Origin: a virus
Taxonomy: Duplodnaviria; Caudoviricetes
Reading direction: 5' to 3' (one strand)
Virus record (IMG/VR): IMGVR_UViG_3300017774_002380
Coordinates: 1 to 61,462 of that record
DNA length: 61,462 bases
The stretch's first letter is position 1, and the number at the start of each line of letters is the position of its first letter. This document shows, piece after piece, positions 3,201 to 56,290 of the stretch. Position numbers and translations under genes: made by a program. The notes under the pieces are model-generated. The model was not told the origin of the DNA, did not search any database, and saw only the letters and a list, made by a program, of their open reading frames with translations.

Positions 3201-3477
3201 GTGAATACTGGCCGACAGTGTTCTGAAAAACTCGCATGAGATAGCATAGGAGTCCTTCTCCTGTTTCTCGCGGGATTGTAGGAACTTCAGCAGAAAAACT
3301 AGGATCACAAGGAATATCCCAAACAACCCTGCCTCCTGAAACTGTCTTGGTGATTTCGCCATAAAGCGCGTCCACCAAATTATCGATCAAAGACGGAACG
3401 CTTTCATGCTGAACCGTTGGATAAGGCGTGTCAGGGCAGCAGGAGTTTTTGTAAATGTTATTGTCGGAGCATGACAT
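208..3477 (-). CDS. Tailspike / receptor-binding protein with a pectate-lyase-like beta-helix
   Basis: 1089 aa. VEDYGAVGD...DDSAAIQACINAA is a typical start of phage beta-helix domains. C-terminal xxxGNxF rungs and a Cys-rich N-terminal attachment region. Confidence 0.85.
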   Translation of the reverse strand: MSCSDNNIYKNSCCPDTPYPTVQHESVPSLIDNLVDALYGEITKTVSGGRVVWDIPCDPSFSAEVPTIPRETGEGLLCYLMRVFQNTVGQYSPFQYWSYTGNNSTTTFALSPSTNTLRSSYLVYLNGVVQPPTVYTISNTVPVNIVFTTAPANGAAITIVNLGYQPPSVIDVTQSDATPTGSSQTQTVGAWLAYILQDIASLFASVSSFRELPPYPAAAGQKSLIAPGGGGTPFWGNFPSELPAYVSGPNPKVLVAPPTTGTPLSWQDLPALSIGPIVATGSITPRFVDDRFAEVFCVEDYGAVGDWNGTTGTDDSAAIQACINAAIAYTNSRGGEARVVFTPGRSYRLVTRQLNTIGQTSVSNYLNIYGGNTQMKLCIDGRGARLYGNGANPATAAGSNGTDILYICTRFDTIRVENLYFEQQPHIVIYGGAPAGGIRMSPFTTTVTYSKLFSIKGCQFENCRMPFIVFPFNNFLFVDKLENLEIIDTQMLHNRGSAHSMSSTGGNQTVNLSRWIKNFYCENVYFSGMPENNVLPFDVDQPVDGFSYVGATHENYSNCFFTGNPIETIIPSGAGSVFNAINFGPFVQPAVGSTVSVSVTANAFGNALTLGKVYMMDMGGPAPSDPLINQTDIGPVGVYIPESFTGSYAGAFPGTVTFRRYALSKAEIWPYAQDVATGLTVNDAGYGIRVFEADTAAQRSLVVQGCRFVYEKSMLGHPYDVVGNAATDTFTASGPLSGTCTISQASPAVITKNNHGLLEGSRVYFTTTGALPSGIVASTVYIVRDVTQNTFTLSPIGSLGTRVNTTTAGSGVHTTYTAPLIGNGVKVRFNVTGGNLSAGKTYYVINKTATSPAFQVSESFNGPLFNLTSNVSSGTVQAFWRGGSPCIAGYCPGTITGNVFYGYDVAIFVKDQYNWGPTRGSTITGNYFVNYSDEPDQTGSGFVVAQLNTNSCNFSNNTIQISKSQDTVYSLFITGDNHVITGNTCVCYNQSNVPTPTRFINWNNGAPASGWRCVVENNVVFGLDNYGNAGSYPQVMGPFMGQLRGTIATPGSQEIKVRQRHISSDKAQWLLGIEDDGEITVEKFGGFAP

Positions 3478-3546
3478 ATGTTTGATCCTCGTTAAGCGTT
3501 TTCTTCAGGCAAGTATGGTTTGGTTTTTTGTCCGTGCAAACATTTT

Positions 3547-4386
3547 TCAATAGAACGGGAAAAATTCTGCTCGTTGGCGAGAGCATCCATCTCCCATTCC
3601 AATTTCTAGAATCCATCCTCCAACCATAGCCGAAAGACCTTTGGTCAGCATAAAAGGTGTCTGTCTTTGGAAGCAACCTACCTGTAATACAGATACGTTT
3701 CGATAGCTCGGAAGCCAATCGGACTTGTGATAGTTCCCAATAGCTAAAACGTCTGGTTTAGTTCCGCCCTCAATCTGCTCGACAATTTTCTGAGCGCGAT
3801 AAGAAAGCGCATACGAAGAGCCTCCACCGGGGTGCAATAACCCGAATTTAATGCTTTTGCCATTTTTCATGGAGAAACTGATCTCTCCATGATCCTCGCC
3901 AAGGAAGATCCAATCTGACCGTAGCTGCTCTAGCCCTCCGCCGACATTGATTCCAGCGGCCCGTTTCAGGCTGACATCATGGTTACCAGTGATGAAGTGG
4001 ACAGGGACGCCAAAGTCAGGCGCTACCTCGGCAAAGTGCTTGCTCTGAGCTTCCCATCCATGCTTGTGAGTCTCGTACTCTTGACCGCGAAACAGCCTGT
4101 GGCCCTCCAAGACATCCCCTGCGTGTATCATGGCCTGAACCCCGCGCTTGCGGCAGGCGTCAGCGTAGGCATTCAGCGCTTCCAGATCCTCGTATAACGA
4201 GCCGAAATGCGTGTCTCCAAAGATCCCAACCCTGACGGTATCATCAGGAATCTTGATGGCTGTTGACCTCTTTGTATTTTTGAGGTGCTCCAGAACGCGA
4301 CTCATGCCGCTGATGCGTTCCTGACCAGCAGGAGATGCAATAAACTCTCCCTCAAACTCTTGTATGCTTTTTGGTTTCTTTTTCAT
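3547..4386 (-). CDS. Calcineurin-like metallophosphoesterase
   Basis: Motifs GDTH, AGDVLEG, GNHD, LLHP and GNYH. Likely start is the ATG at 4386 (MKKKPKS). Confidence 0.85.
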   Translation of the reverse strand: MKKKPKSIQEFEGEFIASPAGQERISGMSRVLEHLKNTKRSTAIKIPDDTVRVGIFGDTHFGSLYEDLEALNAYADACRKRGVQAMIHAGDVLEGHRLFRGQEYETHKHGWEAQSKHFAEVAPDFGVPVHFITGNHDVSLKRAAGINVGGGLEQLRSDWIFLGEDHGEISFSMKNGKSIKFGLLHPGGGSSYALSYRAQKIVEQIEGGTKPDVLAIGNYHKSDWLPSYRNVSVLQVGCFQRQTPFMLTKGLSAMVGGWILEIGMGDGCSRQRAEFFPFY

Positions 4387-24332: not shown

Positions 24333-24758
24333 TTAGAGTGTCTTTCTGAAATATATAGATCCACCACCGCCCCACGGGGTTTCGGGGCGATACGTTTTGT
24401 AGCCGCAGGAGATGAGAGAGTTGATGGAGGGAGGATTCCACGGGACGCAGTAGGTCACTAGTTGGGTTAGGCCCATGCGTCTTGCTTGGCGTTCACGCAC
24501 GGAGATCAGGCGCTTTTGTAATCCTTTGCCGCGATGTTGTGGAATTACGCCAACGCGACATAGGAAGCCAAGGCCAGTGTTGCAGGCGTTCTGGCATGGG
24601 CGCAATCCTGCGTAGGCTACTGCTTGTTTGCCTCGCCATACGATCCACCAGATGGAGTCTGCCAGATCGATGCGATGATCTGTTGGAAAGCAGATTTCGT
24701 CTAGCGGCAGGACGGCTATGGGAGCCTTTTCCATGCGGATGTTGTACGTACAAGCCAT
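24333..24758 (-). CDS. GNAT-family acetyltransferase
   Basis: VGVIPQHRGKGLQKRLI acetyl-CoA motif A and NPPSINSLISCGY. Confidence 0.88.
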   Translation of the reverse strand: MACTYNIRMEKAPIAVLPLDEICFPTDHRIDLADSIWWIVWRGKQAVAYAGLRPCQNACNTGLGFLCRVGVIPQHRGKGLQKRLISVRERQARRMGLTQLVTYCVPWNPPSINSLISCGYKTYRPETPWGGGGSIYFRKTL

Positions 24759-24759
24759 G

Positions 24760-25635
24760 CTACTTTTGTTTTGTCAGGCGCATACCATAATCGTTCACAG
24801 CGCCAGAGCGAACATATTGTGAGTAGTGGGGTACGCGATTGAGTTTGTTTCGTTTGAATCTTTTGTAATCGACATGGTGATGCAGGCGATTGAAGCGCCA
24901 AGTAATTTCGGAGACATCAGGGTGCAGGGCTTTGAGCATTTCGGACTTCGGGCCTGTGCCTTCATGCGCGTAGAAAGCGTCCGTGTTGCCGCCCTTGAGG
25001 GTTTGGGTTGTGGCTTTCTCTTGGAGGAAGGCATTGAACTGACAAGTCACGTAACCGTCTTTGAGTGCGCGAAGGGAGAGGTCAGTGTCCTCGTTATAAC
25101 GTCCTCGCCAGCGGTACGGCAGTGCGTTGTCTATGAGCAGGCAGGAGTATATGCGTGTATTTAGGACGAATGCGGGGAGGGGTTCCTTAGCCTTGGCGAA
25201 GAAATCGTAGTTGAAGCCAGCGATGGCGAGGTTGGTGTAGCGGTCTGTGAAGTCCTCAGCGGCAGCGAAGATGGCTCCATTGGTTACCTTGACCATGAGG
25301 TTGCGGTTGAGGCGATTGAAGGAGGCGATGTTATCGTCCATTACCCAATGGCGTTGATAGCCATAGAGACAGGAGATGTCCCAAGCGAAATTCCGTGCAG
25401 GGCCGGGGCCAAGCGGTTTGGCGCGTCCATGCTCATCGCACGGCTCATACCGTTCATGGTACTGCGGCGGCAGCGTCAGGATCTTATCAGGGTGTATAAC
25501 CTTCGCGTACAAATCGTACTCATCAGGCTCCACTATGATGTGGTAAGGGACGCTGATCGACTCCAGCGCCTTGCTCGTCAGGCGAGAGTCAGCGCGTCCT
25601 TTTGATACTATATAGATAGGATAGCGCGGGTTCAT
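24760..25635 (-). CDS. TET-associated glycosyltransferase (TAGT/GREB1-like)
   Basis: PIYIVSKGR, ARNFAWD, HWVMDDNI, NTRIYSCLLI, WRGRYNEDTDLSLR and KGGNT motifs. Confidence 0.8.
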   Translation of the reverse strand: MNPRYPIYIVSKGRADSRLTSKALESISVPYHIIVEPDEYDLYAKVIHPDKILTLPPQYHERYEPCDEHGRAKPLGPGPARNFAWDISCLYGYQRHWVMDDNIASFNRLNRNLMVKVTNGAIFAAAEDFTDRYTNLAIAGFNYDFFAKAKEPLPAFVLNTRIYSCLLIDNALPYRWRGRYNEDTDLSLRALKDGYVTCQFNAFLQEKATTQTLKGGNTDAFYAHEGTGPKSEMLKALHPDVSEITWRFNRLHHHVDYKRFKRNKLNRVPHYSQYVRSGAVNDYGMRLTKQK

Positions 25636-36875: not shown

Positions 36876-39800
36876 TAAGGTATCTTAATCTCTGGAAGAG
36901 GGGTTTTCAACATTGAACCGACAACATCATTGTCAGTCACAGGCTTGCCTTTCTTGGCATTGGCAGCAAGTTTTTTATGCTGCTTCTCATAGTTCGGGAA
37001 GAGCTTCCTAAGATGTGTCGGAGTCTTAATCAGGAAGTTATTGCCGTTAGCAGGCCCAAGCATGACCCAAGGGTAGGAGGGGTGGATTTTGAACTTGGGA
37101 TTCTTCAGAAGTTTATCCCGCATCTTTTTCTCCGCTGGAGTCATGGCGGCTTCCTGTTTTGGATTTTTGCCAAAGTAAAGGGCGAAAGCCTGAGGATTTG
37201 CAGATAGCTGGATTATTGCCACGGCTTGCCCCGTTGTGGCATTGATCATGTCTTCGGAGTCCTGCAGGGCATTGACCACATTCGGAAGGTCAGGAATGCC
37301 AGAAACTGACTTAGTAGCCTCGCCCCTTGCCGTGAATGAGTACCCCAAAAACTCCTGCAGGAAGTTTTTGTTCGATCCCAACTTCAAGAGGCGCTTAAAC
37401 CACGGTTTGTTCTTGTGCTCATTGTAGACCCTCAGCGCTTCTTTTTTGGCGGTAGCCAGCAGTTGGGGATCATTCTTGGAAACGCGATTCTTGATCGGAG
37501 TTAACGCTCTGTTGAAGGCAATGATTGCGTCTTCTTCAGGCGTATTCACAGGGGCAGGAATCGGATCTTCGCCTTTCTCGGCGCGTATCCTGTTCTTTGC
37601 CCCACGTCTTGTGGCGGCTTTGATCTTTTGCGCTCTTAGGTTTCCAACCTCCAAAAGTACGTGAGCCAAGTCTTTTACCCAAGGTTCCAATTTCCCTGCT
37701 TTGTCAAAGGCATCAACTTCTTTGATGTAGTCCGTACCGAAAGCAATGTTGGATCGGTGAGCATCATCCGCCATGATTTGCACGATGTGGTATCCATCGT
37801 CTACGTTGGGTAGCCTATTACGCATTCCGTTCACTGGCCCAAGCCCAAGGTTGCCCCAAACTGGCTTATATAGAATGCCATCTGGCCCCATCACGGTTTC
37901 CTGATTGGACTTGAGGAATTCATGCATCGGGCCACCCATGTCCTTGCCAAGGGTGTGATGCCTGTCTGCCTGCACCATCCCAACGCGCTTGCCGCTGATG
38001 TCGCTCAGATCTTTGACAACAGGGTTAACCACGCGAGTAGGGTCTACTTTTACAAGGATCTCAGTTCCAGTATCGTCAATCAGTCCAGCGTAGAAAAATC
38101 CACGGGCTGGAACCTTCTTCGGAAGTTTGACTACACCTGTCTTTGCAATTGTGAAGTCAGCCACAGGAGGATTCTTGCGCTTCGGAAGAAAGTTCATGTC
38201 TGGATTCTGAACATCAAACCTTTGAGAAATGGGGATGACGCTTCCATCAACATCATAAGTAACGGGATCTGCTCTTTTAACCTGATAGTCGTTAAATAAA
38301 ATATATGAATCTCCCTTACCTTCAAAATCGTTTTTGTATACTAAACCGTCATATCCTTCTTTAATTGCTTTTGCGATTATTGGCCTCCAAGACCCTCCAT
38401 CTTTTACGCGCTTTATATAATTTGCTTTTGCATATAGAGGAATAATTACCCCGTTGTCTTCCTCAACTCCACGTAATTCAAGAACCGTTTTAGCTTGTTG
38501 TTCTGTTCCAATATGAATTCCTTCTGGATTCCATCCTTGACCCGGGGGAGTCATTACATATCCCGCTTGAGGGTGAGTCGATAACCACTCTCTTATTTCT
38601 GGTGATGCGTTCAAATCATCAAATACTCTGAACTGATTGTTTTTATAAGTTCCATGAAATCCTTTGATGTTATATCCAGCATCTTTTGCTGCCTTATCAA
38701 CTATCTTTTGCAACTTGTCCTGATTTGCTTCGGGATCTTCGGCTAACTTCAAATAGTTCGCATCTTGCTTAGGCGTAATTCTTTTCGGAAGGAACCTTGC
38801 ATCTGGAGTCGCTGTTTGCGGGGGGACATATATGTCCCCTTCTAGCGTCCAACCTTCGGGCATTTTTACATCAAAAGGGACTTGGTCTACTCCAAAGCGG
38901 AGGTTCTTGGAGATAGCCTCGGCTGCAACATCACTTATCCTTGGATCTCTTGATTTAGGAGAGCCTTCTACGGGCAGATTCCTTTCGGGCAGGAACCTAA
39001 CGTCAGGATTCTCGCGATTGAATCGCTGACTCAGGGGGATTAGCTTTCCTTCATTATCGTACGTAAATGGCTCGGCAGATTTGATCTGGTTTGGTTCAAA
39101 AGCAATGACGTGATACGTGTCAGGAGTCATTCCCTCCATTTGTCGGCCAAGTTTTCTCTGAGATCCAAATTTGGTGTCCACCGTGTTGTCAATGATCCCA
39201 TCGTATCCAACTTCTTGGAGGATTTGGCGAACAACTTCTCCAACAGCAGAATCTCCATTTTCATCTACAGCGTCTTGAAGGGCTTCGCTATTTTTCAATA
39301 GCTCAACCGCTTTTGAAAGCGGCATCCCATCAAGATCACCGTCTTCAAGCAAACTTCGCACTACCTTTTCCGACGAATCTCCAAAGGTAAATTGTGGAAC
39401 TACATTACGAATTGCCTCAATCATCTTGATGGCGCTTCCTGACTCTGTGTCGGTCTGCTCATCGTAATTGTATTCAAGCCTGCTTTCGTTTTCTCCACCT
39501 AAAATTGCAGGGTTCTCAAGTCGAACATAAGTTCTTAATGTTTGTTGACCTCCGCCAGAAAGCTGTTTTTGGGCAACGGCTTTTGCCAATGAATGCTTTA
39601 TTGAAGTCAAAGAATCAACGGGCAACGATCCATATGGTTCAACTTTAAGCGACCTAAAATCAATTCCGTTTTCTTCTGCAAAGTTCTGAACCTCTTCGAT
39701 TGTTTTAGATTGAACCAACCTGTTGTCAAAAATTTCTTCAGCTTTTCTTTCAATCCTAGAAGTCAAATCTGGCCCCTCGCCTGCGTAATTCTTTTCTGCG

Positions 39801-42800
39801 TCATTTAGGTTTGAAGTAAAATAAAACCCTTTTCCTAAATCATTTTCTACATTGCTGTTGACGGTATCAAATACAGTGAAGTTATGAGTTGTCCCATGAT
39901 ACAGGGTATCGTCAGATCCCCAACCAGATGTTTTGGCTTTTTCATCAATCAACTTCTGAGCTTCTTCTTTTGCCGATTCATCGCCCTTCTTATACTTGGC
40001 CTCTAGATCAGCATAGTTTGCATCCAATTTCTTAGCAGGAAGGTAGCGGATATCAGTTGTATTCTGATTGAAGCGCTGTGAAAGCGGGATGACATTGCCT
40101 TGATCATCTCGCGTTATAGGGTCGGCCAGTTTGATGAGAGATGGATCTCTGACGGATATGGTATCCATCGGCCCCGTGGAGTCCTCCTGAATCATCATTG
40201 CGTCATACTTTTTGAATACAGCGTCCGCCAAAGGTTTATCTTCCCAAATGAGGTATCCTCCCTTCTTCACCAAATCCATTGTGTCTTTTGTTATTTCAGA
40301 TTCGGAATCTACCCCAAGGCGTTTCAAAAGTGCTGGCAAAACATCTCGATAGTCTTCGGCAGGATTAAATATTTTGTCAGTCTTCAAATATGCCCTGACA
40401 AGTCTCGTTCCCATCTCGCGCTCGGCTTCAAGCCAAGTCATTCCATCTAGATTGTCCCTTTCAAATTGCCGTCCAGCTTCAAGATATTCTTGTGCAGCCG
40501 CATCCATTTCTGGAGTGTTTTCACCCCATTTTCTAACATTCGGGCCAAACCTTTCATCTTGTTCAAACAATTGATTGACCAGTTTATTAGATTCTTTCTT
40601 AACTGCTTCAATACGCTGAAGAACTTCATCGCTTGGCTTCCTATTTTTTGCCCAATTTTCAGAAAAATCACGGGACTTACTAAAGAAAATCAGTCCGTCA
40701 GCATACCTTGTGGCCTTGAATTCATTAAACGCTTTCTTAGTTCCATGCCACCAATCCATGACCGTGTAACCAGCCGCTCTTGCTGCATCGTCTACCAACT
40801 GCTGCAGCTTGGTTCGATTCTTTTCTGGTTCTTTGGATAGGTTAAGATATTCGGCATCTAGCTCAGGGGTGATTCTTTGTGGCAGGAACCTTGCATTTGG
40901 ATCGCTTGAGTCTAATCGTTTTTTTTCTTGGGCTTCCAAGGCGCTTGCCTCAAGCCTGTCATCATATCGATCCGTTGGAGTGTATTGCTTTGCCTTTTGT
41001 GCCTGAATCAAAGCATCTTCTCGGTCATAGAATTTTCCCGCCTCATCTACAAATCCATCAGTCATTCCTTCTGGAGAATTCCAACCTTCACCAGAAAAAT
41101 AGTCTGGCTCAGAACCCTTAGGAACTCCCTTAAAAGCAGATGCAGGGAGTTGCTCATATATCAAGGGATGGGCAATGCCAGTATAAATCTTGCCAGTTTT
41201 TTCGTTCCTGATTGCGGCAGAAACAATTCTAAGGGGCTTCTCATCTTCTTTTGTAGACTTCGGGATGCGTTCCATTGAGTCGCTTAACTGAACCTCCCTT
41301 GAAGAATCTTGCATCGTGTACGGAACACGCTCAAACCCGTTACGGGCATACCAATCAAACAATTGATCGGTAGATAGCCCTCCCTCGTCTTGAGGATCAA
41401 CGTCCAGAGTCATCTTGATGCCCTTAGCATCCGCTTCATCCGTGATTTCTTTCAGGACACGCGAGGCCAGCCCCTTTCCACGTTCGGCCTCAGGAGTAGT
41501 GATGAAACTGAGCCTCCACGTATTGTCTGACGATGGCCTGAACTCCAGAGTGACGTTCCCCTCAGGGTAGGTTCGGGCCATGAATCCATTTCCAAAATAG
41601 AACCATCCCTCCTTGCTGACCAAGTCCTCCCATGATTTTTTGGCATCTTCGCCAGTGGTTTCTTTTGCTGCTAACTTAATGCGCTTCGGAAGGAACTTCT
41701 GTTCAACTCCTCCCTCTTCATCCTTTGGAGGCTCAATCGGCTTAACAAGTTTGATGCCCCCTCCCATGTCAGTGACATCATTAAATTCTGGATTTAGAAG
41801 CTGACTCATGGCTTTCGCCTCGTCACGTTCTGCCTGCCTCTCCGTCTTGCCCATCGTCCTCATGTAGAGGGTGTCCATTGTCTCAGGAGAGATATCGACA
41901 AAATCAGACATGACCTGAGCAGCGTTCAGGATGTCGTTGTTCGGGCTATAGCCGGGGTTGTAGCCATCAGGGAATGTTCCTGCGGGAGGATGCACCGCCG
42001 CCATTACGTTAGACATATCCAAAAGCACCTCGTCAATCGGACGCTTCATGCCGCCATCAAAGTTACCCTTGAGCACCATGAACGGATCAACATTGTCTCC
42101 AGTGCGCTTGTCCTTTGCGCTAATATCAGGAAGCGAGGCAGCAAGATCCGAAAACAAGTCCATCATGTAGGACATTGCCGTCTTATTTAGCTCAATATTC
42201 TTCTGAAGGCTTGCCGCCCTCTCTGCCGCTTGCTCAGGAGCCATCCCTTCGACTTGTCCATTTTCAAGTTTTTCGATGAAGCGCCTGTAGAGCCTCATGT
42301 AAACGTCAGGCTCAAAGTCATCCAAAATCCTGCGAGCAATAGTTGTCAGGTGAAAAGACCTGTCAAAACCGCTCATATTAATGATGGGGTTTCCACCGAT
42401 CCGCATATTGACCAGATCCAGCGCCCCCTCCTCAAAGCGGTCTTTACGGCGCAATACATCGTCCTCTGGAAGGTCTTCGGGACGCTCAAACCTCCTAGAA
42501 GGCAGGAACCCTTGTTCTGACTGAGGGTTGTTGGCATCTGTCAGACGGTCTATGGAGTCTACCCACTCAATCCATTGCTGCTCCCCATAACGGCTTTTCA
42601 TTAGGTTCACAATGGCCTCTTTATTATAACCGTATTCAATGGCCTTTTCGCCATTGGCAAAGTTGATGATCCACCGTGTATTGAGAGCGTCATCCAACAA
42701 ATTTTTGCTAGACTCCATATCGCGGAATGACGGAGTTTTTGCATTTTCTCTGGCCTCTTGTTCGTCAAGTTGATCCTCAAGCGAAGGAATCAGGCGCTCA

Positions 42801-45800
42801 AATCCATTTGCTTTCAGGATGTTTTCCCATGCGCCTGCCTCATATCCCTTGCGGTCTGTACCTACAACAGGGGCTTCAATGGCCTCAAATTCATCTATGG
42901 GGAGATTGTTGTCCCGAAACATCTTATCTAGGTCTGCATGGGCCTGTTCAAAAGTTTTAGACGCAGGCTTTGTTAGAAGCTGTGAGTCTTTTGCAGATCC
43001 CCCGTCGAAATACAGGTCAGGAACAAATGCGCCCTTACCGTCAAGCCCCGCCACAACGCGAATCTTGGCTAAAAACTTTCCTTCTATGCCCTTATAGGTT
43101 CCATCAAATTCAACCATAGAAACTGGATCGCCCGAATACCTACTAGGCAAGTATTGCTGTTGTCCTGCAGTATAAAGTTTCTCAGGGGCTTCTTGGTCAA
43201 AAACATTCTGCCGCCCCGCATCAATCTCTCGGCGCGGAAGAAAATTCTTTTTTACCAATCCATAGGATATTGGCAATGGTTCAAATCCGCTTTCAGCCAG
43301 TTCTGCTATATGGTCGATTCGCACTGACATAATAGTGCGGTCAAAATCAAGTCCCTTCGGATCACCCTTCCTGCGGGGAGTTTGCGTTCTATCAGGATTT
43401 GCGCCTTCGGTTTCTTTGTCGAACAAGTTCAGAAAATCATTGAAGATATCTCGCTTCTTTTCGGCTACTTTAGGATCAGCATCTAGTGGCTTTGCTTGGG
43501 CGATTATATTTCCATCAGCATCTTTCTTAACTGATATATTCCCTGATTCATCGTACCCGCTTCCGCGCAAGCCTTTTGACAGGTTATCAAGAAAAGATTG
43601 CGCGAATTGCGTGTAAAACGCCTGTTTGCTCCCCTGCCAAAGTTGCAACCGCAATGGCATTCTTTCTGCCCATGCGTCCAATTTGCCAAACAGCCTTCCC
43701 GCAGAGACTGTAACGACTAACAAATTGCCTGCTTTAGACATCATCAGCCCAATCGGGACTAAATCGTAGATCTTCGGAGAGAATGCCACATATTCTCCCT
43801 TGTCGTTCATCATTGGAGCGTAGTCTATCAAGACCCTTTCTCCTTTTCCGCGACGAATAACATCATTCATCTGCAGAAAATATTCTTTCAAGCGCTTAGG
43901 AATGATTGATTCGGGCAAGTTTTTGATCGCCTCAATCTGCATATCACTCAACGTCCCGCGATATGTTTCGCCGCCTGCTTTAGTAGGATCAAATCTGTTT
44001 GGAGCACCGTAATCAGGCGTATCAAGCGCCTCGTTAATGTATCTTTTGCGTAGCTTTGCCAGCTTTCTCGCCTCAAGTGGGCCTGTCCATTTCGGGCTAC
44101 CATCAGGATTTGTAGCAACGCGCCCCCGAATAGTGATTTTAGATCCCACGGGAAGCCCCGCCGTATTAACTTCAGAGGCAATCGGCCCGTAAGTTTGTCC
44201 AATTGACGCAACGCCAGCATCAGAAACTCCCCACTCCCCTTCATACACCATCAAATCATTGATAATTTGTGGCTCGCCAATGACTTTCCCGTCTGGCCCT
44301 TGGACAACCGCAACAACTTCGCGCTTCACTACTGGCTGCATCCATCCAAATCGCTCCAGAATCCCTCGGTTCTTCGTCTTCGATAGCTCAAGTTTTGTAA
44401 TTTTTGGAGCGGCCTCTCCCTGAATGGGACTGCTTATCTGACCCTGCAAGTCTTCTAATTCTCGCAGCGCCTTATCTGCCATTGCCTGAAGTTCTGGAGA
44501 AAATGTGAGCCTGCTTCCAATGCCATAGCCAGCCAATCCGCTGCGTAGCGTCCGCACCATGTTGCGGAACTCGCCCATTTTAAAGAACGTCAAAGCGTTT
44601 TGTATAACCTGTCTGCGAATGTCTCCCTTAGAATTTCCAAAAAGCCTTGATATCGATCCCCCCGCGAGATCCGACATGATCTCGTCCTGCATATACTTCG
44701 CAACACGGGCTTCATCTAAGCCGTACTTGTTTATTCCCGGCTGCTCTGCAGCAAACCTTGTCATCATGCTTGCAACAAAGTCAGGACTTGCGCCCTCCAA
44801 ATACTTCGTCACAAACATTTCAGTAAGGTCAGCGTCTGAATAAACGCCATCTGTGCTTGCAATGACGTTTCCTTGCGCGTCCTTAAAGTCTTGTCTGAAG
44901 AGTTTCCTTCTTGCTGGTTCTGTAAGATCTCGGAACTCAGGGATGTCTCCCAAAAGGTGTCCTGCCTCATGCGCGAATTCTTCAATTGGCGTTCTTCCCA
45001 AGCTGTTTGCGCGTTTTACTACCTCATCTGCGTTGATAACAATCGACGGCTTCAAGTCATCCATTCGTACGCCAACATTCTGCCGATCTGTAGGAGTCAT
45101 GCCGGGCCTGTACTCCGTAGTTGTCGGAGCATCGTAAAATCCCGTTTGACTCGCTGCCATATCGATTGCCGCCATCACCGAAGGATCGGTCATGGCATTT
45201 GGATATTTTTTAAGCAGATGATTGCGGATTTGCTGTGATGTTAGAATGCGGAGGTTGACGTTATTTTGCCCCTTGGAAGCTCCCCCGTTTGCCAATTCAT
45301 TGAATCTGGCAACTGTTGACATGAATTGTCTTCCGTATTCGTTCTGCGTCTGGACTCCTGCTCGACGCATTCTGTTCGCTGCAACTTCATTTGCTTGAGC
45401 GGCCAATGATGCATCCTTCATCTCTTCTTTCAGGCGCGTCCGTTTTTGCGCTTTTGTCTCAGGGCCAAAATCGCGCCTCAAATATTTTTTGCCATCAGGG
45501 CCAACAAACTCTTGAACCTTAAACTCAGCTTTTGCGGCAGGAGTAGTCTCAGCAGGCTCTTTATCCAGAGCCTCCAATTCTGCTTTTTTCTCGGCATACC
45601 TACGCTTTGCTGCTTCGGCGCTTTGCCTTTGTGCGGCTATGGCCGTTTCCCAACTAGTAAGTTTGCCGTCTAGGGTAGCCCTGTCTTCCGCAGGAAGCGT
45701 TTGCCTGAATTTAAGAATATCAACGTCTTGTTCCCGCCTACGGCGAGACTCTAAAACTGGATCGCTAGTGCCTAAAATTTTATTTTTAACCCTGTTTTGA

Positions 45801-48097
45801 CCTAGTCCAAAAGCCGTCCAAAGAAGACCTTCTCCAATCACCTGAGCCATCTGCTCTCCATCTTGCGAGTCAATGATTCCAGTAGCTAGTCCAACAAGCG
45901 TTGGCTCGACTCCAGCTTTTATAAGTTCTCCAGTATTGTTGATGATGTTGTCTGCTTTGCGTCCTCCAAATTGCAGAATCCTTTCAGCAACACTCCCCTT
46001 GGCGATATTTGCTGCCGCTGTAGCTTCACCAGCAGCGCCTGCCTTTGCTGCAGAAGCCTCACGCGCCATCTTTGACATCGTTTCAAAGCGCCCAACGCGC
46101 CCTCCTGCAGATGCGCGGCCAGCTTCCAAGTACGCTCTCAAAGAGCCGGGCGCTGACTTTACAGCCCTGCCTCCCAAAGCCCCTAATACAATGCCTGTAA
46201 GACCTTGATTCTCGCTTGAGGCCATGTACCCCACTCCCGCTCCTGCAGCATACGGGGCAACTCCCTGAAGCGCCTTGATGAACTTGCTCTCTTTATAGGC
46301 AGCTTCAGCTTGCTTGAGTGTCTCATCAACGTAGGTTGCCACTTTCTCTGTTCGCGAAACCTTTTGTTTTGCTTCAAGCGCTGCTCTTGCTTTTTTGCTT
46401 TGAGCCATACGCTCGGCCCTTTGCAGAACGGCAAGCTGTTTTTCTGTCAGTCCTGCAGTCCGCATTGCGCGAATAACTTTAGGAGTAAGCTGCGCTCCAG
46501 CGCTTACCAAGGCGCTGCCATAACCAAATGGCCCCATAGCCATAGATTGCGGAAGCGTCAGATCTCCAGCAGCAACAATGTTCGGATTAAGCTCCCACAG
46601 TTCCTGTTTTTGCTCATCGATTAGCTCGCGAGCGCCCTCTTTTCTTGATTCGATATCACGATTGCGGACATTTGTAGCTTCTTCTTTGGAATACCCGTAG
46701 TCCTCCATGTATTGCTCAACACTTGGAATATCGTATTGAGCGAGAGACTCAATAACGGGAGTTAGAGCGTCCAAATATCTAGCATATGGGGTGGGATTTT
46801 TGTTCTCGTAGAACAGCCTTGCTCCATTAAATAAACTTCTGGCTCGGAAGTTCTGAAAACTTTTTTCTCTGCTGCCCCACGGCATAGCTTCATTCAATAG
46901 ATCAAATGCTTCAATTCCCCCCGCATTGACTTTTTGCCCAACCGCTGCGACTTGATACGGCTGATCTACAGCGGAAGACACATATGCTGGAAGGATGGCT
47001 TTTGCCGTTTGTACGATGTTTTCTTTTTTCTTTAAGATCTCTTCTCTTTGCTCTGGAGAATATTCCTGAAGAACTATTTCTAATAGTTTTTGCTCAGAGT
47101 AAGTTGGATCAAGTTCTGCCGCTCTGATTTTTTCCTGAACTACTTTTTTACGGTCTTCAGGAAGCTGAAAAATAAGCTGGTTTGCCAAGCCCTGATCAGT
47201 TCCAGACGCAAAAGCGTTCATGTAACCTACTGTTGCTTCTACCCCGCCCGTTGCAGCGCTTAGTCCAAAATCTGCCACTGAAGAGGCCGCTGTTCCTGCT
47301 AATCCAGCAGCAGCAGGGAAAATATTCAGCCAGCTTGCCTCATCTCTCGGAACAGTGGCCTTTGTGGGGCGACGATATTCAAAAACTTTGCGGTCTAAAT
47401 CTTCGCTGAAGATGATGTCTTCTCGTTGATTTTTAACCTGAGATAATTCCTCTGGATTCAAAGAGTTAAGCATCTCCTGTTCTTGTGGAGACAGGTCAAA
47501 CCCCTGCTTCTCTCTGACCAGATACAGGAAAATGTCTGGTTGTTTGGTTGGCAATTTTTCTGAAGGCGCTGGCTCTTCTTTTGGAGCCTCTCCAATAATC
47601 TTAGGGGATTTAAGAGGCGCTTTCTCCTCTCCAAGCAGCCATGCCATTACTCCCTGATCAGGTGCGCGGAATTCAGCGCCCTTAAACATTTCATCAGCAG
47701 TTACCTTGGGCTTTTGGGGGGCCATTCCAGCGTATTCCATGTACGCCGCATCTTGATTAGCTGCCTCTTCTGGCTTTTGTGGTTCAGGTTTTGGAGCGGG
47801 AGCATATGACTTTGGCGGAACATATGCTCCAGTTACTCCTCCAAGCTGAGCCATAGGCTTTGCAGCCTTATCAATATTAGGAAGAGGAGGAGGGGTTACT
47901 CCTTTAGCTGCCTCGGTGAGGGGTATCGCAACAGTTCTTTTTTCAGCAACAACTGGAGGAAGCGCCATCCGTTCTCGCTCCAAAACGTCTTCCGCCTCAG
48001 CAAGGATTTGCTCTGCAGAATTTAACGTAGGAGACGGCTTTTTCTCTTTTTCAAGAGCCTCCTCTGCCTCCCGCAAGATCTCTTCGGCTGTTACCAT
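36875..48097 (-). CDS. Giant polyvalent internal virion/ejection protein (HExxH zincin, GNAT, three ADP-ribosyltransferase-like modules)
   Basis: 3740 aa. AHEAGH; ERGKGLAS...LFDWYARNGF; WWHGT, LYHGT and GFHGT modules each ending in IP[LI]SQRF. Last large gene of the ejection cluster. Confidence 0.8.
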   Translation of the reverse strand: MVTAEEILREAEEALEKEKKPSPTLNSAEQILAEAEDVLERERMALPPVVAEKRTVAIPLTEAAKGVTPPPLPNIDKAAKPMAQLGGVTGAYVPPKSYAPAPKPEPQKPEEAANQDAAYMEYAGMAPQKPKVTADEMFKGAEFRAPDQGVMAWLLGEEKAPLKSPKIIGEAPKEEPAPSEKLPTKQPDIFLYLVREKQGFDLSPQEQEMLNSLNPEELSQVKNQREDIIFSEDLDRKVFEYRRPTKATVPRDEASWLNIFPAAAGLAGTAASSVADFGLSAATGGVEATVGYMNAFASGTDQGLANQLIFQLPEDRKKVVQEKIRAAELDPTYSEQKLLEIVLQEYSPEQREEILKKKENIVQTAKAILPAYVSSAVDQPYQVAAVGQKVNAGGIEAFDLLNEAMPWGSREKSFQNFRARSLFNGARLFYENKNPTPYARYLDALTPVIESLAQYDIPSVEQYMEDYGYSKEEATNVRNRDIESRKEGARELIDEQKQELWELNPNIVAAGDLTLPQSMAMGPFGYGSALVSAGAQLTPKVIRAMRTAGLTEKQLAVLQRAERMAQSKKARAALEAKQKVSRTEKVATYVDETLKQAEAAYKESKFIKALQGVAPYAAGAGVGYMASSENQGLTGIVLGALGGRAVKSAPGSLRAYLEAGRASAGGRVGRFETMSKMAREASAAKAGAAGEATAAANIAKGSVAERILQFGGRKADNIINNTGELIKAGVEPTLVGLATGIIDSQDGEQMAQVIGEGLLWTAFGLGQNRVKNKILGTSDPVLESRRRREQDVDILKFRQTLPAEDRATLDGKLTSWETAIAAQRQSAEAAKRRYAEKKAELEALDKEPAETTPAAKAEFKVQEFVGPDGKKYLRRDFGPETKAQKRTRLKEEMKDASLAAQANEVAANRMRRAGVQTQNEYGRQFMSTVARFNELANGGASKGQNNVNLRILTSQQIRNHLLKKYPNAMTDPSVMAAIDMAASQTGFYDAPTTTEYRPGMTPTDRQNVGVRMDDLKPSIVINADEVVKRANSLGRTPIEEFAHEAGHLLGDIPEFRDLTEPARRKLFRQDFKDAQGNVIASTDGVYSDADLTEMFVTKYLEGASPDFVASMMTRFAAEQPGINKYGLDEARVAKYMQDEIMSDLAGGSISRLFGNSKGDIRRQVIQNALTFFKMGEFRNMVRTLRSGLAGYGIGSRLTFSPELQAMADKALRELEDLQGQISSPIQGEAAPKITKLELSKTKNRGILERFGWMQPVVKREVVAVVQGPDGKVIGEPQIINDLMVYEGEWGVSDAGVASIGQTYGPIASEVNTAGLPVGSKITIRGRVATNPDGSPKWTGPLEARKLAKLRKRYINEALDTPDYGAPNRFDPTKAGGETYRGTLSDMQIEAIKNLPESIIPKRLKEYFLQMNDVIRRGKGERVLIDYAPMMNDKGEYVAFSPKIYDLVPIGLMMSKAGNLLVVTVSAGRLFGKLDAWAERMPLRLQLWQGSKQAFYTQFAQSFLDNLSKGLRGSGYDESGNISVKKDADGNIIAQAKPLDADPKVAEKKRDIFNDFLNLFDKETEGANPDRTQTPRRKGDPKGLDFDRTIMSVRIDHIAELAESGFEPLPISYGLVKKNFLPRREIDAGRQNVFDQEAPEKLYTAGQQQYLPSRYSGDPVSMVEFDGTYKGIEGKFLAKIRVVAGLDGKGAFVPDLYFDGGSAKDSQLLTKPASKTFEQAHADLDKMFRDNNLPIDEFEAIEAPVVGTDRKGYEAGAWENILKANGFERLIPSLEDQLDEQEARENAKTPSFRDMESSKNLLDDALNTRWIINFANGEKAIEYGYNKEAIVNLMKSRYGEQQWIEWVDSIDRLTDANNPQSEQGFLPSRRFERPEDLPEDDVLRRKDRFEEGALDLVNMRIGGNPIINMSGFDRSFHLTTIARRILDDFEPDVYMRLYRRFIEKLENGQVEGMAPEQAAERAASLQKNIELNKTAMSYMMDLFSDLAASLPDISAKDKRTGDNVDPFMVLKGNFDGGMKRPIDEVLLDMSNVMAAVHPPAGTFPDGYNPGYSPNNDILNAAQVMSDFVDISPETMDTLYMRTMGKTERQAERDEAKAMSQLLNPEFNDVTDMGGGIKLVKPIEPPKDEEGGVEQKFLPKRIKLAAKETTGEDAKKSWEDLVSKEGWFYFGNGFMARTYPEGNVTLEFRPSSDNTWRLSFITTPEAERGKGLASRVLKEITDEADAKGIKMTLDVDPQDEGGLSTDQLFDWYARNGFERVPYTMQDSSREVQLSDSMERIPKSTKEDEKPLRIVSAAIRNEKTGKIYTGIAHPLIYEQLPASAFKGVPKGSEPDYFSGEGWNSPEGMTDGFVDEAGKFYDREDALIQAQKAKQYTPTDRYDDRLEASALEAQEKKRLDSSDPNARFLPQRITPELDAEYLNLSKEPEKNRTKLQQLVDDAARAAGYTVMDWWHGTKKAFNEFKATRYADGLIFFSKSRDFSENWAKNRKPSDEVLQRIEAVKKESNKLVNQLFEQDERFGPNVRKWGENTPEMDAAAQEYLEAGRQFERDNLDGMTWLEAEREMGTRLVRAYLKTDKIFNPAEDYRDVLPALLKRLGVDSESEITKDTMDLVKKGGYLIWEDKPLADAVFKKYDAMMIQEDSTGPMDTISVRDPSLIKLADPITRDDQGNVIPLSQRFNQNTTDIRYLPAKKLDANYADLEAKYKKGDESAKEEAQKLIDEKAKTSGWGSDDTLYHGTTHNFTVFDTVNSNVENDLGKGFYFTSNLNDAEKNYAGEGPDLTSRIERKAEEIFDNRLVQSKTIEEVQNFAEENGIDFRSLKVEPYGSLPVDSLTSIKHSLAKAVAQKQLSGGGQQTLRTYVRLENPAILGGENESRLEYNYDEQTDTESGSAIKMIEAIRNVVPQFTFGDSSEKVVRSLLEDGDLDGMPLSKAVELLKNSEALQDAVDENGDSAVGEVVRQILQEVGYDGIIDNTVDTKFGSQRKLGRQMEGMTPDTYHVIAFEPNQIKSAEPFTYDNEGKLIPLSQRFNRENPDVRFLPERNLPVEGSPKSRDPRISDVAAEAISKNLRFGVDQVPFDVKMPEGWTLEGDIYVPPQTATPDARFLPKRITPKQDANYLKLAEDPEANQDKLQKIVDKAAKDAGYNIKGFHGTYKNNQFRVFDDLNASPEIREWLSTHPQAGYVMTPPGQGWNPEGIHIGTEQQAKTVLELRGVEEDNGVIIPLYAKANYIKRVKDGGSWRPIIAKAIKEGYDGLVYKNDFEGKGDSYILFNDYQVKRADPVTYDVDGSVIPISQRFDVQNPDMNFLPKRKNPPVADFTIAKTGVVKLPKKVPARGFFYAGLIDDTGTEILVKVDPTRVVNPVVKDLSDISGKRVGMVQADRHHTLGKDMGGPMHEFLKSNQETVMGPDGILYKPVWGNLGLGPVNGMRNRLPNVDDGYHIVQIMADDAHRSNIAFGTDYIKEVDAFDKAGKLEPWVKDLAHVLLEVGNLRAQKIKAATRRGAKNRIRAEKGEDPIPAPVNTPEEDAIIAFNRALTPIKNRVSKNDPQLLATAKKEALRVYNEHKNKPWFKRLLKLGSNKNFLQEFLGYSFTARGEATKSVSGIPDLPNVVNALQDSEDMINATTGQAVAIIQLSANPQAFALYFGKNPKQEAAMTPAEKKMRDKLLKNPKFKIHPSYPWVMLGPANGNNFLIKTPTHLRKLFPNYEKQHKKLAANAKKGKPVTDNDVVGSMLKTPLPEIKIP

Positions 48098-54163: not shown

Positions 54164-56290
54164 TTAGCAGGGATTAGAGATTTTATACTGCACAGCCGCC
54201 GTATTCGCGGCCTGAAGCGCCAAAACGCCAGCCTGTTCCTCGGCATGGGCAAAAGAAATGAAGGAAAGATATGATGCAGAGGCTGTTGCCGATATTGATG
54301 GATAGCCAACGCATGGCAGCGTGACCGTTTTGAAGACCTTGGCGAAAAATGTCTTGTTTTCACCAAGAGGACTGTCCTGCGGACTCGGAAGTATATCGAT
54401 CTTTATTGAATCTCCGCTCTCCCCAACAACGCAAGTCAAGGTTTCGCTTGTGTTGGGATTGCCAACAGATTTCTCGCTCCAAGGATCTTGAAATACCCTG
54501 ACAACTTCTACTCCTAGCTCTCCACACCATTCGATTAGCATAGAAAAGGCTTTGTCTATGTCTGCGGTCAGGGGGCTTTCGCACGTTTCATAACGCGCAC
54601 TTCGCGTAGCGCTTTCCGTAATCAAGCGCCTATATTGGGTATTTAGAAAGCCCAATTTATTGATTTCTTCTTCAAAAGGTGTGTTCCTGTATTGATGAGG
54701 CTCGGTAATTGCCAAAATTCTGCGATCTAGAACATTCGTATACGATCCCTTACTACCCCTGAAGCTGGCTCGCACATCAACAGTTCCACCGATCTCCTTG
54801 CACTCAATCTCGGCATACACAAATTGCTTTAGATCCATGCCATCACCAAGCTGAGCGGTTTCAATTTGGCAATAAATGCGGTTATAGAACTCTGTTGTGC
54901 TGCCGTCTTGGTTGATCCGCAAATATGAGTCCGTACGCTCTGGCATGAAAGACTCCCAAAGATGGTTGTAAGACCCATCGTTTGTGGCTGTGTAATCCAA
55001 AGAGAAATGGAAGCATCTTGGCTGACCATCAACCACTCCACCCGTCCACTCAACGGGCCTTGTGCCTTCCCAAACGCCGCACCAAGCGGGGTTTCTGGCC
55101 TGACCCCATTCAGATGCTGCCGCATAGTCAAGCACCATTGTAGCCGAATTTACGGGTTCTAGGTAAGGAACAGAGTAAAGAAGGTAATTCTCAAAAGAGG
55201 CAGCGCAAATTTGCTTCTGATCTCCAGCCAGATAGCGCTTTGTACGCGCCATCTCGACATCTTTGTACAAAACTTGAGATGACAAATATGAAGCGGCAGC
55301 AACGTCAGCAGCAACCAATCCGCCCTGAGAATACCACCACATTTGTCCAGCCTGAAACGCTATGCTTTTGCCAGCAACGCATCCGACAGTCGGATACAGG
55401 GTATTTTGGAAGTTTGGCGTAGATGCCCATGCCGATCTGTCCAAAATTCCTGACGCCAGCGAGAATGTTGACCTGTCAGTAAAAACAATCAGTCGCGTGT
55501 CGGTGTTTTGACCGACATAGGATACAAGTCCAGTTACGGGCCTTGAAAAACTGAAATCCCCTCTTCCTGATCCTGAAGTTCTTTCAAGCCAGCTTGTGGG
55601 ATCTCCCAAATCTGATGCCAGAACGAGGTTGTTGTCTGCAATCCAAAGTCTATTTCCAGAAAATGCCATCCATGTTCCAACAGGAATCTTGTCGCTTTGG
55701 ACGCCTGTGCGGTTTGATCCGTCCCAATAGGCTGGAGAAGAAATTCCATCCTGAATCATCACAATACGATGCGATGGGGTAACTGTTGTATCTCCTCCAG
55801 TGGATGTAGTGGCTGATCTGGTTGCCAGCGTGAAGACACATTGTGATACATTTTCATCTAGCTTGATGCCACGCAGTCGATAATCGTCCCAATTCTTGGG
55901 CTGCACTAACGGGAACGGAGCAAAATAGACGTTTCCGCTGACAGCAAATAAGATGTATGGAATTTCATCTTTTGCCACTCCTTTGCCATCAACGTCAAAA
56001 ATTTGTCTAGGAATGGTAATTGTCTGCCCATTGACAGTCCTTTTCTCGGCAGCTTGAGATTGTTTGTTAGCCGCGAAAAAAACGCCTCCCTGTATGTTCC
56101 CGGGGGGCAAGGACAGACGCATAGCGTAGCCCGGGCGCGTTTGGGCAATGCCGCCCCTGACGGTAACATTAACGCCCCACTTTAGTTGGTTTTCGGGAAG
56201 CGCCCAACCGTTCCTGACGCTATTGACTCCCTGCGTCCAACCAGCAGTGCTTTTTACAAGCCTTCCAGCGTTGATTTGATCGGACTTCAT
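54164..56290 (-). CDS. Tail nozzle / tail tubular protein B-like (beta-propeller)
   Basis: 708 aa, beta-rich (NRLWIA, ASDLGDP, VGCVAGKSI), in the podoviral position after the adaptor. Confidence 0.72.
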   Translation of the reverse strand: MKSDQINAGRLVKSTAGWTQGVNSVRNGWALPENQLKWGVNVTVRGGIAQTRPGYAMRLSLPPGNIQGGVFFAANKQSQAAEKRTVNGQTITIPRQIFDVDGKGVAKDEIPYILFAVSGNVYFAPFPLVQPKNWDDYRLRGIKLDENVSQCVFTLATRSATTSTGGDTTVTPSHRIVMIQDGISSPAYWDGSNRTGVQSDKIPVGTWMAFSGNRLWIADNNLVLASDLGDPTSWLERTSGSGRGDFSFSRPVTGLVSYVGQNTDTRLIVFTDRSTFSLASGILDRSAWASTPNFQNTLYPTVGCVAGKSIAFQAGQMWWYSQGGLVAADVAAASYLSSQVLYKDVEMARTKRYLAGDQKQICAASFENYLLYSVPYLEPVNSATMVLDYAAASEWGQARNPAWCGVWEGTRPVEWTGGVVDGQPRCFHFSLDYTATNDGSYNHLWESFMPERTDSYLRINQDGSTTEFYNRIYCQIETAQLGDGMDLKQFVYAEIECKEIGGTVDVRASFRGSKGSYTNVLDRRILAITEPHQYRNTPFEEEINKLGFLNTQYRRLITESATRSARYETCESPLTADIDKAFSMLIEWCGELGVEVVRVFQDPWSEKSVGNPNTSETLTCVVGESGDSIKIDILPSPQDSPLGENKTFFAKVFKTVTLPCVGYPSISATASASYLSFISFAHAEEQAGVLALQAANTAAVQYKISNPC

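Follow-up and report, generated by a model that had tools for sequence, protein, structure and literature searches.

The window analysed here (IMG/VR virus record IMGVR_UViG_3300017774_002380; Duplodnaviria, Caudoviricetes) is a complete viral record of 61,462 base pairs with direct terminal repeats. Its largest gene, the open reading frame (ORF) P0001 (36875-48097, minus strand), encodes 3740 amino acids (aa) plus a stop codon. The protein is laid out as an N-terminal chassis, an array of effector cassettes and a conserved C-terminal module, and a short joint peptide, [FY]LPx[RK], occurs nine times in it. This peptide is repeated well beyond chance, it stands at module borders, whole cassettes are exchanged at it, and it is linked to a particular family of chassis. 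Tentatively, we read the joint as a processing site, probably one recognized by a putative zincin-like domain of the chassis itself.

A joint peptide repeated within P0001 and across its relatives

None of the nine [FY]LPx[RK] copies lies within aa 1-1618. In 2000 shuffles of the protein, the motif was found a mean of 0.157 times and at most 3 times, and the Poisson probability of at least nine copies is ∼1e-13. A sequence-only reading of this DNA had reported nine such motifs in the C-terminal half of the 3740-aa protein, with a HEAGH motif upstream of them at ∼44960; every one is present where it was placed (Table 1). Elsewhere in the genome, a six-frame scan with the looser pattern [FYM][LM]Px[RK] returned one copy in one long ORF, the FMPER at ∼aa 447 of a 708-aa ORF (54164-56290, minus strand). 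That ORF is located upstream of capsid-like genes and has a weak match to an 'internal virion protein' PHROG (E 2e-4).

The joint leucine is encoded by CTT at five joints, CTG at three and TTG at one. Because the codons vary among copies, the repeat must be maintained at the protein level. Two other functions were considered and set aside. A DNA-level repeat or recombination site held by sequence homology does not fit the codon variation; just two copies, the FLPKR joints at 41682-41695 and 38178-38191, are nearly alike, with 13 bases of 14 in common. Internal translation starts cannot be the common function, since the leucine codon is CTT, which is no start codon, at five of the nine joints of the window. 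Shine-Dalgarno pairing energies were uninformative: the mean was -3.34 over 64 ATGs at junctions, -2.47 over 1369 internal ATGs outside junctions, and -1.99 over the first ATGs in 22 giant ORFs.

The peptide is also found in the wider family. All 23 further viral loci with this chassis, 29-85% identical over the HExxH region, carry [FYM][LM]P in their giant ORF, mostly as FMP. When 1.84 billion representatives were searched with a profile of the HExxH region, 123 clusters matched; almost all of them are giant proteins in which this region falls at residues ∼650-1250. For 87 representatives of these (clusters at 50% identity, at least 1800 aa), [FY][LM]P occurs 349 times against 80.6 expected, and 51 of the 87 have at least three copies and at least four times the expectation. 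FMP is the commonest joint form in the family and x[RK] trails it in some lineages only. The motif as first read, [FY]LPx[RK], was thus real but too narrow: the conserved core is [FY][LM]P, and the basic tail is lineage-limited. Cultured relatives were found neither for the whole gene (megablast) nor for the chassis, module D or modules B-C-J (tblastn).

Within the core, the residues are not chosen independently. A logo of 130 distinct joints shows isoleucine at position -2 (57 joints), Phe (117) or Tyr (13), then Met (95) or Leu (35), Pro, and arginine at +4 (63). Across 306 distinct 15-mers from the 87 proteins, the pairs are 199 FM, 47 YL, 42 FL and 18 YM, an odds ratio of 12. The 87 proteins contain 363 FM dipeptides, and Pro comes next in 199. 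Downstream flanks are enriched in Glu (1.57-fold) and Pro (1.43-fold) and depleted in Leu, Met, Phe and Trp. Some lineages replace the motif by FAP/FSP or FTP. Forms also mix: FMP and YLP are found together in single proteins, P0002 has one YMP among its FLP joints, and FLP/MLP occurs at the last joint of the FMP lineage.

Joints as borders and exchange points of modules

Eight related giant proteins were cut at the motif and the pieces were clustered. The window protein reads A-I-B-C-J-K-L-M-N-D in the resulting module strings. P0002 and P0005 read A-o-E-F-B-C-H-D, and P0003, P0004 and three viral loci read A-G-E-F-B-C-D. Cassettes therefore come and go whole between joints, and the chassis A and end module D remain. 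The same pattern emerges from local alignments. Among 2651 internal BLAST segment ends from 34 non-redundant proteins, which are not independent events, 39.0% fall at most 10 residues from a motif; randomly placed motifs gave a mean of 4.8% and a maximum of 9.2% in 500 trials.

One exchange can be located to the nucleotide. A related 61-kb genome, L011, is ∼89% identical to the window from 38188 down to 27936 (L011:11471-22702). Upstream of 38188, the body of the giant gene is 65-67% identical to L011 or cannot be aligned. The switch in identity, at 38188, coincides with codon 2 of the last FLPKR. The ∼89% identical region, more than 10 kb long, comprises early and DNA-metabolism genes.

A structure model gives the borders at residue level. 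The AlphaFold model of aa 2640-3125, built from a 60-row alignment, has a mean pLDDT of 81.6. Its confident ART fold stops at Phe3035, with pLDDT below 50 from Leu3036 on, and the first helix of module L begins at Leu2686, one residue past Tyr2685; joints 2685 and 3035 thus bound the ART module L. Joint 3102 lies in a low-confidence stretch that says little, the downstream module being cut off in this model. A natural counterpart is P0090, a stand-alone ART protein from a 37.8-kb contig with just distant matches in cultured phages, which ends exactly at ...SQRFNLQSKDIRY, that is, at ...DIRY. Going by the borders in the model and the end of P0090, the upstream unit ends with the aromatic residue, and [LM]P is the start of the following one, which is either a module or a short acidic, Pro-rich linker. 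P0143, P0135, P0145 and P0133 appear to be separate genes that begin at a joint Met-Pro. P0143 proved to be an artefact of a truncated contig; its full ORF in L031 is 1645 aa.

The sequence-only reading had placed the motifs at domain boundaries. Module strings, the AlphaFold model and breakpoint enrichment bear this out, as does the presence or absence of whole cassettes in relatives, with gain and loss exactly at the motif. Of the functions it offered, a recombination joint for swapping modules has a real instance at nucleotide resolution, within the last FLPKR.

The ART-type cassettes allow the joint to be separated from the module that precedes it. In 88 ART-sharing homologues, these cassettes end in a conserved tail, GNVIPLSQRF-x(4-6)-DIR[FY]. 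The aromatic residue of joints 2685, 3035 and 3303 is the last residue of this widely conserved tail, also written IPLSQRF-x5-D-x-[RN]-[FY]. The tail is also present, without a following LP, in other polyvalent proteins. With the P0001-type chassis, [LM]P follows 14 of 18 tails, in 11 of 13 proteins; without it, [LM]P follows 0 of 69 tails in 46 proteins (none of which has it), and Ser comes next in 53 of the 69 (Fisher p = 2.8e-10, uncorrected for shared descent). Judged from this comparison, the joint goes with the chassis rather than with the cassette. Since the same cassette has Ser next in other chassis families, [LM]P is not needed for the ART fold.

The tail itself spans aa 2665-2685, 3015-3035 and 3283-3303 of P0001, and it accounts for most of the 103 pattern matches in the 88 homologues. 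It is better conserved than the catalytic core, and many matches of 56-71% identity span only this 8-13% of the query. Stand-alone ARTs of ∼300 aa lack both the tail and an N-terminal D-A-E-Y-L helix. Because both are missing together there, tail and helix may work as a pair.

A second chassis family extends the pattern. Its members, L030-L054, come from ∼40-kb viral contigs, carry HELFHALEK or HEILHA and are 1600-2235 aa long, with no detectable similarity to the P0001 chassis. Their long proteins hold 3-6 [FY][LM]P copies each, mostly R[FY]MP, against ∼0.5 expected. Two of their cassettes align to cultured-phage genes over just the stretch between joints.

These observations bear on whether the joint is read at all. 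It could be a passive structural seam, neither read nor cut, in which the aromatic residue caps one domain and Leu/Met-Pro caps the next helix or linker; we regard this as unlikely. An equally slim chance attaches to the corollary that the seam looks conserved as only recombinants joined at a neutral seam fold correctly. The model agrees with such a seam, since in it the upstream fold ends on the aromatic residue and a helix has Leu-Pro at its N-terminus; so does the stop of P0090 at the aromatic. Recombination breakpoints within one codon of the seam speak for it as well, and the near-identity of two FLPKR copies (13 of 14 bases) might promote deletions or insertions from joint to joint. However, one and the same tripeptide serves folds that are unrelated to one another (A, B, C, E, F, J, D and ART), and the same ART cassette has Ser after it in other chassis families and Met/Leu-Pro only in this one. 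Nor is DNA homology what maintains the joint, given its varied codons, and the FM/YL pairing points to a constraint that acts on the peptide as a whole.

Modules of P0001 and their genomic setting

By sequence, the array of P0001 holds two modules without a known family, one GNAT-like module and three ART-type modules (Table 1). ART-PolyVal (Pfam PF18760, H-Y-D type) matches P0001 at 63.6 bits against a cut-off of 31.2, ART being one of the domains that the sequence-only reading listed for phage polyvalent proteins, and module L alone scores 52.4 bits. Module K, 29% identical to L, reaches 25.3 bits, under the Pfam cut-off. Module N has no Pfam match; it is 28% identical to L and retains the HGT motif and an IPISQRF tail. 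The three are paralogous, with a common N-terminal helix and C-terminal tail, and the HGT motif is conserved in all of them; F[DE]PxQIKS is a motif internal to the ART. GNAT, from the same list, fared less well: Acetyltransf_1 (Pfam PF00583) is marginally above its cut-off on module J alone (21.8 bits against 20.7, E = 2.5e-4) but below it on the whole protein (16.8 bits).

P0001 is accordingly read as a phage-type polyvalent protein, with at least two unrelated effector-type domains in one polypeptide: an ART, two ART paralogues and a marginal GNAT. In this it resembles the class described by Iyer, Burroughs, Anand, de Souza and Aravind (2017, J Bacteriol; PMC5512222), being a phage giant in which effector-type domains of unrelated kinds (ART-PolyVal, GNAT) are joined to an HExxH domain. 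Unlike those proteins, its chassis matches no Pfam peptidase model. As far as the accessible part of that account extends, P0001 adds two things to the class: its C-terminal module is conserved, and its cassettes are swapped at a defined joint peptide. In relatives that share the chassis (P0268, P0248, P0244 and P0250), the cassettes include a Zeta-toxin kinase, an ADP-ribosyltransferase of exoenzyme type and PcfJ-like domains. Because the relatives' cassettes are so varied, the array seems to draw on a wide pool of conflict-system enzymes.

The fold neighbours of the module L model are PARP/tankyrase, cholix/exotoxin A, ParT and MbcT, with Z of 5-6.5. Its closest solved neighbour is chain B of PDB 9k3a (residues 944-1600), from the pre-ejectosome of cyanophage A4, with Z 9.4, rmsd 3.5 and 15% identity over 177 aligned residues. 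From its residue numbering, this chain is probably gp27. The A4 paper (PMC12002296), in the sections available, does not term the matched part an ART.

Searches of Pfam, NCBIfam and PHROGs gave no family for modules B, C and D or for the N-terminal 1618 residues. Module D forms the C-terminal end of 16 matching chassis-type proteins; in the 15 that bear the motif, one copy lies 0-42 aa from where D is projected to begin. In many relatives, module D ends in a similar short tail (...MLKTPLPEIKIP, ...MKKSKIPLIINTKK). The ESM Atlas gave module D scores of only 0.81-0.82 toward His-Me finger nuclease-like clusters, which is a lead only. The position of spacer I is occupied by 14 aa in P0002 and P0005 and by 67 aa in the FMP lineage.

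Table 1. Modules, joints and motifs of P0001, with residue numbers and window coordinates
Feature	Residues (aa)	Position	Strand	Remarks
Module A, chassis	1-1618	43244..48097	-	Conserved in all relatives; zincin-like region ∼aa 900-1300
HEAGH	1043-1047	44957..44971	-	With P1053-E1054 forms HExxHx5PE
Junction 1, FLPRR	1619	43229-43243	-	Chassis end; orthologous site NF[LM]P in relatives
Spacer I, remainder	1624-1648	43154..43228	-	Module I is 30 aa, junction 1 to junction 2
Junction 2, YLPSR	1649	43139-43153	-	
Module B	1649-1863	42509..43153	-	In 8/8 proteins compared
Junction 3, FLPSR	1864	42494-42508	-	
Module C	1864-2134	41696..42508	-	Matches no known family
Junction 4, FLPKR	2135	41681-41695	-	In P0003 and L011, module D comes straight after
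Module J	2135-2403	40889..41695	-	Marginal GNAT match and phrog_839-like part
Junction 5, FLPQR	2404	40874-40888	-	
Module K	2404-2684	40046..40888	-	Paralogue of ART-PolyVal module L
Junction 6, YLPAK	2685	40031-40045	-	Tyr closes K tail IPLSQRFNQNTTDIRY
Module L	2685-3034	38996..40045	-	ART-PolyVal
Junction 7, FLPER	3035	38981-38995	-	
Spacer M, remainder	3040-3101	38795..38980	-	Module M is 67 aa, junction 7 to 8; mostly low-confidence in model
Junction 8, FLPKR	3102	38780-38794	-	
Module N	3102-3302	38192..38794	-	Short ART-like paralogue
Junction 9, FLPKR	3303	38177-38191	-	∼89% nucleotide identity to L011 begins at its second codon
Module D	3303-3740	36878..38191	-	Conserved C-terminal module

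A block upstream of the P0001 gene contains a 1161-aa ORF whose matches are of baseplate or tail-fibre type. Most neighbours of the P0001 gene have no family assignment; its setting fits that of a phage gene among late or virion genes. Further away, a gene for a TET-associated glycosyltransferase (Pfam TAGT, E 1.5e-37; phrog_842) at 24333-25635 on the minus strand adjoins a small GNAT gene; this adjacency hints that the phage may hypermodify its DNA bases.

What may act at the joint

The candidate reader lies in the chassis. Across aligned chassis sequences with identities of 29-85%, HExxHx5PE never varies (19 of 19). In a model of aa 900-1300 of middling quality (pLDDT 61.3), HEAGH sits on a helix (138-151) that follows a beta strand. 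The invariant Glu, seven residues past the second His of HExxH, begins the next helix. In gluzincins, the spacing from His to Glu is longer. The zincin domain of the sequence-only reading therefore holds as a motif but not as a recognized family, as the searches below find neither a Pfam peptidase family nor a significant structural neighbour; the peptidase assignment comes from a short motif, and the zincin fold is putative. Zincin-like regions that are short or stand alone were not found among proteins of 220-702 aa. The residues before HEAGH are EF in the FLP lineage and AL in 16-17 of 17 FMP-lineage sequences, a single-lineage contrast that is a lead only.

We consider it quite possible, if short of probable, that the joint peptide serves as a site of processing, with the putative zincin-like domain as its probable reader. 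A processing signal fits best because the peptide is repeated, borders unrelated folds, delimits spacer peptides, has Glu- and Pro-rich flanks and is tied to the chassis. A protease would act on the joints once the protein has been made or, with greater likelihood, once it has been ejected into the host; the bond that links the aromatic residue to Leu/Met is the most plausible place for the cut. The enzyme would most plausibly be the chassis's own zincin-like domain, and cutting would free the cassettes as separate proteins. Every functional cassette would then have to bear the same seam, so the seam would be where recombinants survive and the array would act as a plug-in platform. It is from these features of the joint that we infer cleavage, and with it the scissile bond, the protease and the timing. 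The array is probably delivered as protein along with the DNA, which would make P0001 a virion component; an indirect hint of packaging is that the ART module has its nearest solved neighbour in a pre-ejectosome. A bolder form of the proposal, which we hold to be rather doubtful, is that [FY]-[LM]-P would be the address code of a cut-and-release platform, that an undescribed metalloprotease family would cut behind the aromatic residue of each seam once the unfolded protein has entered the host, that recombinants would work only at the seam, so that any domain flanked by it could be plugged in, and that more than 100 lineages of uncultured phages and a second, unrelated chassis family with R[FY]MP would share this grammar.

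Several results weigh against processing by the chassis. Pfam peptidase families match 0 of the 19 chassis sequences at E ≤ 0.001 (best E 0.11-0.2) and 0 of 17 distant chassis representatives, and NCBIfam gives no match either. A profile search of PDB sequences had a best E of 0.44, and Foldseek with the model of the zincin-like region returned nothing at E ≤ 0.001. The best matches to the core are YbeY-type hydrolases with Z of 5.8-5.9, within noise (VIA-align), and the top VIA rows are helical hairpins over low-confidence residues 256-326 of the model. Leu and Met forms coexist in single proteins, so a code that coevolves with its reader is at most a bias. For the same reason, a strict 'private code', in which all joints switch with the reader, was softened to a lineage preference. 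The modelled joint between K and L is nearly without a free linker, and the folded protein might resist cutting there. An N-terminal Leu, as left by a cut after the aromatic residue, would be a bacterial N-degron. The gene is split at a joint in none of 18 loci with a complete 3′ end, and no cleavage product has been observed for P0001 or any relative. Finally, known relatives of the class can stay whole: the virion RNA polymerase of N4 contains a peptidase domain of this sort and enters the particle without processing, according to the part of PMC5512222 that treats it, and the large outer-layer ejection protein of A4 is described as a single subunit from Ser114 to Cys1715 inside the virion, in a portion of PMC12002296.

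This last point leads to an explanation without cutting. The joint may be a short linear binding motif, by which the giant protein, left uncut, would hold many copies of a single partner, an arrangement we think improbable. A similarly low likelihood applies to the candidate partners, which could be a capsid-interior, portal or pre-ejectosome protein at packaging, or a host chaperone or translocation factor that would take up each module on its unfolded exit from the tail. A short motif conserved amid variable Glu/Pro-rich flanks is what such binding would look like, as is one copy per module, tied to the chassis family rather than the cassette. The relatives of such proteins are ordered and apparently intact parts of a pre-ejectosome, and the N4 polymerase remains unprocessed, as far as the cited portions of these two sources describe them. 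The A4 protein, a large internal podophage protein packed on the portal and ejected, likewise has no processing reported in the sections of PMC12002296 that were available. Yet no partner has been identified, and binding would not need exact placement on every border. The aromatic residue appears to be part of the upstream fold, as with Phe3035 in the model and the end of P0090, and not of a free linker. Motif pairs 14-67 aa apart look more like the spacer peptides of polyproteins.

Processing of such proteins has been proposed before. Iyer et al. suggested that zincin-like peptidases process polyvalent proteins (PMC5512222, in the portion available), and the literature searched, including that paper outside its supplementary files, contains no junction or cleavage motif for them. 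They drew an analogy with polyproteins found in RNA viruses of eukaryotes, as the same portion of the paper has it. Those polyproteins resemble the proposed layout of P0001 in their embedded peptidase, in recurring junction sites from which separate enzymes are released, and in short spacer peptides. There is no homology, however, and P0001 would probably be delivered with the DNA and not translated in the host, its cutting being proposed and not seen.

The prohead protease of giant phages is another comparable system; its cleavage site reportedly has Glu at P1. In phage SPN3US, the prohead protease gp245 cuts head-packed, ejected proteins at a short recurring motif (PMC10052503 and PMC5694885, in the parts covered). 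There, according to the same parts, a separate head-maturation enzyme acts on many separate substrates, in contrast to the one cassette array of P0001, and cleavage has been shown by experiment, whereas that of P0001 is predicted. The comparison raises the question of whether some other enzyme cuts the joints, either an unrecognized phage head-maturation protease or a host protease after ejection. We give this very little weight. The unconfirmed zincin fold of the chassis leaves room for another protease, the giant-phage precedent shows such an enzyme at work on head and ejection proteins, and one could hide among the structural genes, most of which lack a family assignment. However, Pfam detects no other protease family in the 47 ORFs of the genome, and the joint type follows the chassis. 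A second, sequence-unrelated HExxH chassis family also joins its cassettes with R[FY]MP.

Polyvalent proteins are among the largest and commonest proteins of phages, and the 2017 proposal that peptidases process them stayed untested, partly because the positions of the cuts were not known. A three-residue seam pinpoints the residues for mutation and the termini to seek by mass spectrometry. It is kept over more than 100 sequence clusters, on every module border, and is tied to one chassis family. The seam provides a simple rule for dividing giant ORFs into their functional parts, many of them outside any known family, and it offers an explanation of how phages shuffle their anti-host effectors. 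In laboratory phage-host work, such arrays might also serve as a natural scaffold by which selected proteins are delivered along with phage DNA. Even if nothing reads the seam, it would still be a useful marker of domain borders and recombination in these genes.

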